Shown one piece after another: positions 2,280 to 43,293 of a stretch of 64,000 bases of DNA. The first letter of the stretch is position 1; every line of letters starts with the position of its first letter. The position numbers were made by a program, and so were the translations under genes. Where the stretch lies: assembly GCF_053078305.1 (NCBI RefSeq), contig NZ_CP166879.1; one strand, given 5' to 3'. The notes under the pieces were generated by a model. That model saw only the letters and a program-made list of their open reading frames with translations. It did not search any database and was not told the DNA's origin.

Positions 2280-3164
2280 ATGAAGCCTTTTTTGCGCTGG
2301 TGTTTCGTTGCGACAGCACTTACGCTTGCAGGATGCAGTAATACTTCCTGGCGTAAAAGTGAAGTCCTCGCGGTACCATTGCAACCGACTTTACAGCAGG
2401 AAGTGATTCTGGCACGTATGGAACAAATCCTTGCCAGTCGGGCTTTAACCGATGACGAACGCGCACAGCTTTTATATGAGCGCGGAGTGTTGTATGATAG
2501 TCTCGGTCTGAGGGCATTAGCGCGTAACGATTTTTCGCAAGCGCTGGCAATCCGACCGGATATGCCTGAAGTATTCAATTACTTAGGCATATATTTAACG
2601 CAGGCAGGCAATTTTGATGCTGCCTATGAAGCGTTTGATTCTGTACTTGAGCTTGATCCAACTTACAACTACGCGCACTTGAATCGCGGGATCGCATTAT
2701 ATTACGGCGGTCGTGACAAGTTAGCGCAAGATGATCTGCTGGCGTTTTATCAAGACGATCCCAATGATCCTTTCCGTAGTCTGTGGCTTTATCTCGCCGA
2801 GCAGAAGCTCGATGAGAAGCAGGCTAAAGAAGTGTTGAAACAGCACTTCGAAAAATCGGATAAGGAACAGTGGGGATGGAACATTGTCGAGTTCTACCTG
2901 GGCAACATTAGCGAACAAACGTTAATGGAAAGGCTCAAGGCGGACGCAACGGATAACACCTCGCTCGCTGAGCATCTCAGTGAAACCAACTTCTATTTAG
3001 GTAAGTACTACCTAAGTCTGGGGGATTTGGACAGCGCCACGGCACTGTTCAAACTGGCGGTTGCCAACAACGTTCATAACTTTGTTGAGCACCGATACGC
3101 ATTGTTGGAATTATCGCTCCTGGGCCAGGACCAAGATGACCTGGCAGAATCGGACCAGCAATAG
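2280..3164 (+). CDS. nlpI: lipoprotein NlpI (TPR repeat), 294 aa
   Basis: ORF with lipobox LAGC near N-terminus and TPR-like repeats; synteny after pnp. Confidence 0.93.
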
Positions 3165-3343
3165 CTGACGTACACATCAGCCCGTAATCTTTTTTGATTG
3201 CCATCACCTTAACGGGTGAGGGCGTTGTTGTTCGTTAATACACCTACTTTGAGCCGGTTCACACTTTTCAATGAAAATTGCTGATCAATTTCATGATGAG
3301 TTATGTAGACTGGCCGCCATTAATTTTGAGGCACACGTACTAC

Positions 3344-5233
3344 ATGGCTGAATTCGAAACCACTTTTGCAGATCTGGGCCTGAAGGCTCCTATCCTTGAA
3401 GCCCTTAACGATCTGGGTTACGAAAAACCATCTCCAATTCAGGCAGAGTGTATTCCACATCTGCTGAATGGCCGCGACGTTCTGGGTATGGCCCAGACGG
3501 GGAGCGGAAAAACTGCAGCATTCTCTTTACCTCTGCTGCAGAATCTTGATCCTGAGCTGAAAGCACCACAGATTCTGGTGCTGGCACCGACCCGCGAACT
3601 GGCGGTACAGGTTGCTGAAGCAATGACGGATTTCTCTAAACACATGCGCGGCGTAAACGTGGTTGCTCTGTACGGCGGCCAGCGTTATGACGTGCAATTA
3701 CGCGCCCTGCGTCAGGGGCCGCAGATCGTTGTCGGTACTCCGGGCCGTCTGCTGGACCACCTGAAACGTGGCACTCTGGACCTCTCTAAACTGAGCGGTC
3801 TGGTTCTGGATGAAGCTGACGAAATGCTGCGCATGGGCTTCATCGAAGACGTTGAAACCATTATGGCGCAGATCCCGGAAGGTCATCAGACCGCTCTGTT
3901 CTCTGCAACCATGCCGGAAGCGATTCGTCGCATTACCCGCCGCTTTATGAAAGAGCCGCAGGAAGTGCGCATTCAGTCCAGCGTGACTACCCGTCCTGAC
4001 ATCAGCCAGAGCTACTGGACTGTCTGGGGTATGCGTAAAAACGAAGCACTGGTACGTTTCCTGGAAGCGGAAGATTTTGATGCGGCGATTATCTTCGTTC
4101 GTACCAAAAATGCGACTCTGGAAGTGGCTGAAGCTCTTGAGCGTAACGGCTACAACAGCGCCGCGCTGAACGGTGACATGAACCAGGCGCTGCGTGAGCA
4201 GACACTGGAACGCCTGAAAGATGGTCGTCTGGACATCCTGATTGCGACCGACGTTGCAGCCCGTGGCCTGGACGTTGAGCGTATCAGCCTGGTGGTTAAC
4301 TACGATATCCCGATGGATTCTGAGTCTTACGTTCACCGTATCGGTCGTACCGGTCGTGCGGGTCGTGCTGGCCGCGCGCTGTTGTTCGTTGAGAACCGCG
4401 AGCGTCGTCTGCTGCGCAACATTGAACGTACTATGAAGCTGACTATTCCGGAAGTAGAACTGCCGAACGCAGAACTGCTGGGCAAACGCCGTCTGGAAAA
4501 ATTCGCCGCTAAAGTACAGCAGCAGCTGGAAAGCAGCGATCTGGATCAATACCGCGCACTGCTGAGCAAAATTCAGCCGACTGCAGAAGGTGAAGAGCTG
4601 GATCTCGAAACTCTGGCCGCCGCACTGCTGAAAATGGCACAGGGTGAACGTACTCTGATTGTTCCGCCTGATGCGCCGATGCGTCCGAAACGTGAATTCC
4701 GTGACCGTGATGACCGTGGTCCGCGCGATCGTAACGACCGTGGCCCGCGTGGCGACCGTGAAGATCGTCCGCGTCGTGAACGTCGTGATGTTGGTGACAT
4801 GCAGCTGTACCGCATTGAAGTGGGCCGCGATGATGGTGTTGAAGTTCGTCATATCGTTGGTGCGATTGCTAACGAAGGCGACATCAGCAGCCGTTACATC
4901 GGTAACATTAAGCTGTTTGCTTCTCACTCCACCATCGAACTGCCGAAAGGTATGCCGGGTGAAGTGCTGCAACACTTTACACGTACTCGCATTCTGAACA
5001 AGCCGATGAATATGCAATTACTGGGCGATGCACAGCCGCATACTGGCGGAGAGCGTCGTGGCGGTGGTCGTGGTTTCAGTGGCGAGCGTCGTGAAGGTGG
5101 TCGTAACTTCAGCGGTGAACGCCGTGAAGGTGGTCGTGGTGATGGTCGTCGTTTTAGCGGCGAACGTCGTGAAGGCCGCGCTCCGCGTCGTGATGACTCT
5201 ACCGGTCGTCGTCGTTTTGGTGGTGATGCGTAA
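3344..5233 (+). CDS. deaD: DEAD-box RNA helicase DeaD/CsdA, 629 aa
   Basis: Motifs [20 protein letters not shown] present; start set at MAEFETTF (ATG 3344) rather than the upstream ORF-track start; Arg/Gly-rich C-terminal tail. Confidence 0.94.
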
Positions 5234-5258
5234 TCATCGCTGAACAGCGAACACAGTC

Positions 5259-5276
5259 TGTAAAATAATATATACA
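5259..5276 (+). promoter_or_regulatory. candidate TyrR box upstream of mtr
   Basis: tgtaaaataatatataca resembles TGTAAA-N6-TTTACA; mtr is a known TyrR/TrpR target. Confidence 0.4.
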
Positions 5277-5307
5277 GCCCCGATTTGAACCATCGGGGCT
5301 TTTTTTC
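5276..5307 (+). terminator. intrinsic terminator of deaD
   Basis: Perfect 9-bp stem agccccgat / atcggggct with 7-nt loop followed by T-run. Confidence 0.8.
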
Positions 5308-5315
5308 TGTCTTTT

Positions 5316-5333
5316 GTACTCGTGTACTGGTAC
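5316..5333 (+). promoter_or_regulatory. candidate TrpR operator in mtr promoter
   Basis: gtactcgtgtactggtac contains repeated GTAC half-sites as in trp-type operators, positioned about 55 bp upstream of the mtr start. Confidence 0.45.
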
Positions 5334-5386
5334 AGTGCAATACATAACAACGCAGTCGCACTATTTTTCACTGGAGAGAAGCCCTC

Positions 5387-6631
5387 ATGGCAACACTAAC
5401 CACCACCCAAACGTCACCGTCGCTGCTTGGCGGCGTGGTGATTATCGGCGGCACCATTATTGGCGCAGGGATGTTTTCTCTGCCAGTGGTCATGTCCGGG
5501 GCGTGGTTCTTCTGGTCAATGGCGGCGCTGATCTTCACCTGGTTCTGTATGCTGCATTCCGGCTTGATGATTCTGGAAGCTAACCTGAATTACAGAATCG
5601 GTTCGAGTTTTGACACCATCACCAAAGATTTGCTGGGCAAAGGCTGGAACGTGGTCAACGGCATTTCCATTGCATTTGTGCTCTATATCCTGACCTATGC
5701 CTATATTTCTGCCAGTGGTTCGATTCTGCATCACACCTTCGCAGAGATGTCACTAAACGTCCCGGCACGGGCGGCGGGTTTTGGTTTTGCATTGCTGGTA
5801 GCGTTTGTGGTGTGGTTGAGCACTAAAGCCGTCAGTCGCATGACAGCGATTGTGCTGGGGGCGAAAGTCATTACCTTCTTCCTCACCTTTGGTAGCCTGC
5901 TGGGGCATGTGCAGCCTGCGACATTGTTCAACGTCGCCGAAAGCAATGCGTCTTATGCACCGTATCTGTTGATGACCCTGCCGTTCTGTCTGGCATCGTT
6001 TGGTTATCACGGTAACGTGCCAAGCCTGATGAAGTATTACGGCAAAGATCCGAAAACCATCGTGAAATGCCTGGTGTACGGTACGCTGATGGCGCTGGCG
6101 CTGTATACCATCTGGTTGCTGGCGACGATGGGTAACATCCCGCGTCCGGAGTTTATCGGTATTGCAGAGAAGGGCGGTAATATTGATGTGCTGGTACAGG
6201 CGTTAAGCGGCGTACTGAACAGCCGTAGTCTGGATCTGCTGCTGGTCGTGTTCTCAAACTTTGCGGTAGCGAGTTCGTTCCTTGGCGTAACGCTGGGTTT
6301 GTTTGACTATCTGGCAGATCTGTTTGGTTTCGATGACTCAGCTGTGGGCCGCTTGAAAACAGCATTGCTGACCTTTGCCCCGCCTGTCGTGGGGGGCCTG
6401 CTGTTCCCGAACGGATTCCTGTACGCCATTGGTTATGCTGGTTTAGCGGCTACCATCTGGGCGGCAATTGTTCCGGCACTGCTGGCCCGCGCATCGCGTA
6501 AACGCTTTGGCAGCCCGAAATTCCGCGTCTGGGGTGGCAAGCCGATGATTGCGCTGATTCTGGTGTTTGGCGTCGGCAACGCACTGGTGCATATTTTATC
6601 GAGCTTTAATTTACTGCCGGTGTATCAGTAA
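5387..6631 (+). CDS. mtr: tryptophan-specific permease Mtr, 414 aa
   Basis: Polytopic membrane protein of the aromatic amino acid permease family; paralogous to tdcC/cyuP-type transporters in this window. Confidence 0.93.

Positions 6632-42916: not shown

Positions 42917-43293
<377 letters not shown>

Follow-up and report, generated by a model that had tools for sequence, protein, structure and literature searches.

Repeats near the 3' end of deaD probably mirror two predicted disordered segments around a folded RNA-binding domain

We analyzed the repetitive 3' end of a DEAD-box helicase gene in a 64,000-nucleotide stretch of DNA (contig NZ_CP166879.1 of RefSeq assembly GCF_053078305.1; hereafter, "the window"). 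We conclude, with a probability of roughly 85%, that the 3' third of this deaD (csdA) gene encodes a C-terminal extension in which a folded RNA-binding domain (RBD) serves as anchor next to a disordered linker and a disordered tail, and that the repeats in the DNA are the coding image of these two disordered segments. From the literature and from their composition, roles of the two repetitive segments in RNA tethering, annealing and condensates are likely.

The identification of the gene as deaD/csdA is secure. Its coding sequence occupies positions 3344-5233 on the plus strand (1,890 nt, i.e., 629 codons plus stop), beginning with the ATG at 3344 and ending with the TAA at 5233, as given by RefSeq CDS lengths; the same 1,890-nt length rules out the TTG at 3278 that a mechanical ORF list offers as the start. 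Against the NCBIfam equivalog PRK11634, the product scores 1397.6 bits (cutoff 989), with aa 1-629 aligned to profile positions 1-628 of 628. Pfam places DEAD at aa 30-196 (177 bits) and Helicase_C at aa 232-340 (111.8 bits), the C-terminal domains PF25399, PF03880 and PF12343 all score above their cutoffs, and the DEAD-box core motifs (including Ia) can be read in the translation. The NCBIfam profile for CshA covers aa 8-435 only and, at 496 bits, stays under its cutoff (646). Finally, the 574-nt stretch 4660-5233 corresponds to annotated deaD in 5,425 of 5,426 complete E. coli genomes at 90-99.3% identity. All of these results agree with the first-pass annotation, which had named the gene DeaD.

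The setting is that of the E. coli chromosome, where deaD sits in the order pnp-nlpI-deaD-mtr. An nlpI-like lipoprotein ORF (2280-3164) lies upstream and the tryptophan permease gene mtr (5387-6631) downstream, and the first 12 kb of the window are up to 99.7% identical to E. coli chromosomes, with the order pnp, deaD, mtr, yhbW, ubiU. A terminator scan found an intrinsic deaD terminator on the plus strand (5276-5310), consisting of a 9-bp G+C-rich hairpin (5276-5300) followed by a T-run. Rfam yielded no RNA family in or near the deaD region, its sole match within the window being rnpB at 42917-43293.

For comparison we used DeaD/CsdA of E. coli K-12 (UniProt P0A9P6). The K-12 protein (WP_001295553.1; PDB 5GI4 and 5B88) has the same 629 residues in length, the same domain order and the same neighbours, nlpI and mtr. 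The two tails are one residue apart (GFS versus GFG, window versus K-12), with seven synonymous or near-synonymous base differences in 204 nt. At the DNA level the window allele is 96-97% identical to K-12 and 99.3% identical to the closest complete genome; nothing of substance differs between the two proteins. From work cited in two papers, K-12 DeaD is known to unwind RNA with ATP, to be induced by cold shock and to have a role in 50S biogenesis (PMC11850223, PMC1616957).

The first-pass annotation had treated the last 190 or so codons as one repetitive tail. Repeats are indeed found at both ends of this region; the region itself, however, divides into a linker, a folded RBD and a tail, all on the plus strand. 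It is preceded by the DeaD dimerization domain (aa 374-443, positions 4463-4672; PF25399, 64.7 bits), which is identical in sequence to the C-terminal part of 5GI4. The Arg/Asp-rich linker (aa 446-487, positions 4679-4804) was delimited by composition, repeat units and pLDDT and is predicted to be disordered. The folded RBD is of the DbpA type (RRM-like) and spans aa 488-564 (positions 4805-5035), with PF03880 at aa 489-558 (73.6 bits) and a solved structure in PDB 5B88. The Arg/Gly/Glu-rich tail occupies aa 565-629 (positions 5036-5230), where the Pfam family DeaD_C (PF12343; aa 568-629, 45.7 bits), TRF and pLDDT converge. That a repetitive C-terminal extension is to be expected in DeaD, as proposed at first pass, is borne out by this last family, whose Pfam name is "DeaD helicase C-terminal disordered region."

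Structural data follow the same boundaries. Searching the PDB by sequence, we found aa 480-564 to be identical to the CsdA RNA-binding domain (5B88_A), and the end of 5GI4_A matches the residues up to 445 without a difference; these two solved structures contain neither the linker nor the tail. With an alignment of 30 sequences that covers the last 190 DeaD residues, AlphaFold2 gives aa 486-562 a pLDDT of 70-92 and a beta-alpha-beta fold, and assigns pLDDT < 50 to aa 440-485 and aa 572-629. Both the linker (aa 446-487) and the tail (aa 565-629) are predicted to be intrinsically disordered. In the 30-homologue alignment, the RBD is near-invariant from Escherichia to distant gammaproteobacterial homologues and both of its flanks are indel-rich.

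The two flanks also have distinctive compositions. Arg makes up about 33% of the linker (15 R plus 1 K) and Asp 20%, with an FCR of 0.67 and a net charge of +4 over 42 aa, and the charge pattern is that of a well-mixed polyampholyte. The tail contains about 28% Gly and about 27% Arg (19 R) and carries a net charge of +8 over 65 aa. The net charge of the core plus dimerization domain is -9.

The repeats differ between the two segments. In the linker, the units are 8 residues long (24 nt) and read FRDRDDRG, PRDRNDRG, PRGDREDR and PRRERRDV (positions 4697-4792); a repeat finder reports a 13-nt unit at 4706, 4730 and 4748, spaced by 24 and 18 nt. The tail consists of two 11-residue units (5045-5077 and 5078-5110), a 15-residue unit (5111-5155) and a degenerate terminal stretch of 25 residues (5156-5230). 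TRF detects one array, at 5046-5140, with period 33, 2.9 copies, 77% matches and a score of 120; the repeat finder reports a 43-nt unit in three copies at 5055, 5088 and 5133, spaced by 33 and 45 nt and 79-86% identical. The peptide units quoted at first pass (RDRxDRGPR and others) are present in the translation of 3344-5230. The period of 33-45 nt given there holds for the second block (spacings of 33 and 45 nt); the first block, however, has a period of 24 nt over 9 nt. Nor do the last 190 codons form a continuous repeat, because the 210 nt at 4808-5017 are non-repetitive and encode the folded domain.

The repeats are real and exceed what composition alone gives, since shuffles of codons or residues rarely reach the observed lags. 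Among 3000 codon-order shuffles, 33 reach the best lags of the tail (45 and 33 nt, at 52-53% identical bases) and 59 those of the linker (9 and 24 nt), so the periodicity of both repeat blocks lies above codon-order shuffles at p of about 0.01-0.02. In the RBD-coding control (210 nt, 4808-5017), there is no periodicity: 1660 of 3000 codon-order shuffles reach its best lag. When residues are shuffled instead, the protein-level lags are reached in 7 of 5000 cases for the linker (lag 3, with lag 8 next) and in 108 of 5000 for the tail (lag 11).

A separate question is whether the DNA repeats contain anything that the peptide repeats do not. We simulated back-translation of the same peptide with deaD's own codon usage. 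At lag 33, the tail has 62 of 102 matches versus 59.1 +/- 3.2 in the simulations (p = 0.22), and the corresponding test for the linker gives p = 0.83. Between tail units, codons are identical at 14 of 20 identical residues versus 10.1 expected. The DNA-level similarity follows from the protein repeat and codon usage, and recent duplication or gene conversion of the units, of which we see no sign, was rejected on this comparison. The nucleotide-level reiteration described in the first-pass annotation is therefore present, in that it exceeds codon-order shuffles, but it adds nothing beyond the peptide repeat and codon usage.

The first-pass annotation had also called the region prone to length variation and had proposed a comparison of repeat number across strains. 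We used the K-12 tail (204 nt) as query against the 5,425 E. coli genomes: 5,262 match at >= 95% identity and 163 at 90-95%, and in six the tail is aligned over < 80% (the length catalogue leaves out five of these six). Almost all of the 163 carry a single 12-nt duplication allele that adds REGG. With this allele as a 216-nt query, 161 genomes match at >= 99% identity, including E. coli 042 and PCN033, and identity is 100% in the 12 matches listed. The allele is present in about 3% of E. coli genomes, and about 97% of the 5,425 share one tail length. Because its carriers are near-identical, the +12-nt allele looks like a single inherited event.

Other length variants are isolated. Synthetic queries revealed the loss of precisely one unit in a single genome (-33 nt; strain K56-43-un) and a loss of 12 nt in a single other (strain WP2-S18-ESBL-07); a synthetic +33 allele, in which the second 33-nt unit is duplicated, was found in none of the 5,425 genomes. 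The urinary isolate FXCREC035 has lost 132 nt, i.e., 44 of 65 tail residues, between two GCGTCGTG direct repeats. The existence of this clinical isolate means that the cells can live without most of the tail. The linker has a 24-nt tandem duplication in one genome and an 18-nt duplication (GPRGDR) in another, NCCP 13914. All length variants found are multiples of three and are located at short direct repeats. For the 210-nt RBD-coding control, none of the 5,425 genomes falls below 95% identity or 80% coverage. The comparison across strains thus does return differences in repeat length (+12, -12, -33, -132, +18 and +24 nt) against 0 of 5,425 in the control, and the repeats are measurably more indel-prone than the neighbouring RBD-coding DNA, although the events are rare. 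Proneness to length variation stands to the extent that in-frame tail variants exist in about 3% of genomes; they are rare, however, and nearly all are the +12 allele.

Tails were also compared between genera. The protein homologue search with the last 190 aa retrieved mainly fragments and frameshifted sequences, so that it serves for comparison of tails and not as a clean species survey. Between genera, 72-97 residues follow the RBD and contain one to four GERR units. The Klebsiella tail has an extra 11-residue unit, making two identical adjacent units, as well as a duplicated APRRDD unit. In all of Escherichia, Yersinia, Edwardsiella and Plesiomonas, the tail keeps its composition (Arg/Gly/Glu), a net positive charge and the motifs GERR and RRRF(G)DA; homologues further away still have basic tails.

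These data bear on two other explanations of the repeats. One is that they form a contingency-type tract, recently duplicated or evolving in concert, with frequent slippage that supplies adaptive, fast-switching length variants. The in-frame length alleles at the repeats, with none in the RBD-coding control, would fit such a tract, as would the variation in unit number between genera and the two identical adjacent 11-residue units of Klebsiella. We nevertheless regard it as very improbable: identity at synonymous sites stays within codon-usage expectation (14/20 versus 10.1; p = 0.22), tail length is the same in roughly 97% of the 5,425 genomes, with only one common variant, and that variant is what one inherited event would give. 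None of these genomes has the second 33-nt unit duplicated, and the units are 77-86% identical with at most 3-4 copies, unlike typical phase-variable tracts. With low polymorphism and diverged units, the locus was rejected as a phase-variable or contingency tandem repeat.

The other explanation is that the repetitive segments are neutral spacer or junk, tolerated at the end of the protein and drifting freely in composition. Conservation of sequence and length is indeed poor in both segments, and a natural isolate (FXCREC035) lives without 44 tail residues. Free drift is difficult to reconcile, however, with the persistence of composition, positive charge and the GERR and RRRF(G)DA motifs across genera, with the fact that all length variants found in the 5,425 genomes are in frame, or with a tail that supports its own Pfam family, and the literature gives the C-terminal regions of CsdA a part in RNA binding and tethering (PMC11850223, PMC3590231, PMC10193013). 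We consider this explanation improbable, and prefer the reading of the segments as a disordered linker and tail that work with the RBD.

The repeats and their codons also produce long open reading frames. The ORF list contains minus-strand ORFs of 145 aa over the tail (4924-5361), 80 aa (4573-4815) and 439 aa (3698-5017), together with alternative-frame ORFs on the plus strand of 112 aa (4659-4997) and 71 aa (5028-5243), the latter in the +1 frame and open across the whole tail. As a null, we re-encoded the deaD protein 1000 times with its own codon usage (synonymous resampling). In all five alternative frames, the longest open stretches are reached in a fraction of 0.21-0.88 of the simulations. 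The 439-aa antisense ORF is in codon register with deaD, in which TTA, CTA and TCA are rare over most of the gene; it reflects this rarity and not the repeats, whereas those that overlap the repeats stem from the CGT/GGT/GAA codon set. A scan of 3100-5450 revealed no convincing promoter-like site on the minus strand. A reasonable reading is that the antisense and alternative-frame ORFs are compositional by-products, and since their lengths fall within the range of synonymous resampling, it is reasonable to call them spurious, as had been done at first pass.

We give next to no credence to the idea that one of them (the 145-aa minus-strand ORF at 4924-5361 or the +1 frame at 5028-5243) is a real overlapping protein. 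The ORFs are long, the +1 sense frame is open over the whole tail and stops 10 nt past the deaD stop, and V-rich frameshifted DeaD C-termini do exist in protein databases. These entries, however, are singletons or small clusters, as is typical of assembly indel errors, and the open stretches in alternative frames do not exceed the resampling range (0.21-0.88). In addition, the 145-aa ORF would need to begin between deaD and mtr and to pass through the hairpin of the deaD terminator, and the promoter scan of 3100-5450 offers it no minus-strand site. The long antisense and alternative-frame ORFs over deaD should not be annotated as genes, and frameshifted DeaD entries in databases probably result from indel errors in this low-complexity stretch.

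Several known helicases share parts of this layout. CsdA, Hera and CshA belong to a small group of dimeric DEAD-box helicases (PMC11850223). Hera of Thermus thermophilus and CshA of Geobacillus, Bacillus and Staphylococcus have the same succession as DeaD, from the core to a dimerization domain to an RRM-like RBD, and in them, as in CsdA, RNA is anchored mainly by the RBD (PMC11850223). Unlike Hera and CshA, the enterobacterial DeaD lineage has a long Arg/Asp linker and a repeated tail (Pfam DeaD_C). The nearest analogy in layout is human DDX21 (and DDX50), which combines a core, a homologous dimerization domain, an accessory domain with an RRM-like fold (GUCT) and a basic tail that consists of FRGQR/PRGQR repeats and increases the affinity for RNA (PMC7721647). 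The DDX21 repeat has five residues, none of them acidic, and the DeaD unit has about 11; the likeness is one of layout and probable mechanism, and we claim no homology between the tail sequences.

Disordered Arg-rich tails that tether RNA non-specifically and promote annealing are also found in Mss116p, Dbp2/DDX5, Ded1 and the IDRs of the RhlE family, and some of these tails drive phase separation (PMC10193013, PMC11260450, PMC3590231). They follow the core directly and are purely basic, whereas the disordered parts of DeaD bracket a folded RBD and its linker is a near-neutral R/D polyampholyte. Three features of such disordered basic tails, namely predicted lack of stable structure, net positive charge and Arg enrichment, are found in the DeaD segments. 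Eukaryotic RGG/RG boxes are likewise Arg/Gly-rich, repetitive, disordered and associated with RNA binding. A canonical RGG box contains two or three closely spaced RGG tripeptides (di- or tri-RGG). The 65 residues of the DeaD tail hold one RGG, three GGR and three RG, interleaved with Glu, and we rejected the tail as a canonical RGG box on account of its single RGG tripeptide.

How the parts may work together is suggested by published biochemistry. A published summary of Xu et al. 2017 gives CsdA affinities for a 32-mer of ~1 uM for the RBD alone, 28 uM for the dimeric core and 0.07 uM for the full-length protein (PMC11850223). Given these affinities, the RBD behaves as an anchor that cooperates with the core. 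In the same summary, a construct lacking only the C-terminal tail retains ATPase and unwinding activities above those of the dimeric core (PMC11850223); because the gain is kept, the tail is not required for it. CsdA also speeds RNA annealing without ATP, for which its locally very basic C-terminal domain was proposed as the site (PMC3590231), and the C-tails of CsdA and Mss116p have been described as flexible tethers that keep RNA close to the core (PMC10193013). Phase separation of purified DeaD depends on the concentrations of protein and salt, and DeaD serves as a marker of condensates in E. coli; the paper on these condensates does not assign the property to the tail (PMC12758526). The cited CsdA literature does not distinguish what the repetitive segments contribute from what the folded RBD does.

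We therefore favor a division of labor, worded here as a model, in which the folded RBD would be the main RNA anchor. The first-pass description of the repeats as the RNA-binding extension needs amendment on this point: the extension does bind RNA, but the main RNA-binding element would be the folded domain that lies between the two repeats. The Arg/Asp linker most likely acts as a flexible, extended connector through which each RBD of the dimer can reach RNA from the dimeric core. For the basic tail, the most likely role is to make non-specific electrostatic contacts with RNA that promote tethering and strand annealing, and it may be a source of weak multivalent interactions on which the salt-sensitive phase separation of DeaD would depend. 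The DNA repeats would then be peptide repeats written in a strongly biased codon set (CGT, GGT, GAA), in which slippage or recombination between short direct repeats may occasionally add or remove a unit in frame; such gains and losses would be tolerated because the segments are disordered.

Much of this was already known: the helicase gene itself, a tail with its own Pfam family (PF12343), flanking domains with solved structures, and a dimerization domain that is also in Pfam (PF25399). The importance of the finding is small and lies mainly in annotation hygiene. What is mildly new is the small list of in-frame length alleles that occur naturally in both disordered segments, which could help to dissect the disordered regions of DeaD in RNA tethering or in DeaD condensates. 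We think it unlikely that these alleles (+REGG, -11 aa, -44 aa, +8 aa and +6 aa) have a function in tuning RNA tethering or condensates and are more than neutral slippage; if they do, they would affect growth in the cold or antibiotic persistence.

One case of natural length variation in the C-terminal tail of DeaD (CsdA), the E. coli cold-shock DEAD-box RNA helicase, is that of strain FXCREC035, a clinical urinary isolate. At its deaD 3' end (NZ_CM135826.1), an in-frame deletion of 132 nt removes 44 of the 65 residues of the Arg/Gly/Glu-rich tail (5036-5230, aa 565-629). The product name that PGAP assigns to this deletion-bearing gene is merely "DEAD/DEAH family ATP-dependent RNA helicase." When complete E. 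coli genomes were searched with deaD 3' fragments, each search also returned exactly one plasmid-borne match besides the chromosomal copies.

The +1 alternative sense frame on the + strand (5028-5243) is open over the whole DeaD tail, with its stop lying 10 nt past the deaD stop codon, and it encodes a Val-rich sequence that many database DeaD C-termini enter at varying points (entries P0011, P0014, P0024, P0025, P0033, P0035, and P0037). Some of the C-termini that switch to this frame come from complete NCBI genomes. We consider assembly indel errors the most likely source of these switches.

At the other end of the gene, a mechanical ORF call puts the deaD start upstream, at TTG 3278, giving a protein of 651 aa, while the lengths in the RefSeq annotation place it at ATG 3344 (629 aa); the 22 additional codons of the longer ORF (3278-3343) are probably untranslated leader. 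Downstream of the coding sequence, the deaD terminator hairpin (5276-5310, + strand) has a 9-bp stem with 6 G-C pairs and is followed by a T-run on the + strand. The same hairpin scores as terminator-like on the - strand too, where its tail is merely AT-rich (GTATATATTA). As for RNA genes, rnpB, which encodes the RNase P RNA, lies at 42917-43293 on the + strand (Rfam RF00010, 318.6 bits), and an Rfam search found no other family at gathering score within the 64-kb window.

The low-complexity segments of deaD, namely the Arg/Asp-rich linker (4679-4804, aa 446-487) and the tail, are also distinguished by their choice of Arg codons. Taken together, they use CGT and CGC in a ratio of 31:3, versus 26:18 in the remainder of deaD (3344-5230; Fisher p = 0.0018). 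This excess of CGT over CGC may have to do with how fast Arg-dense stretches are translated, or it may arise from avoidance of CGC-containing words.
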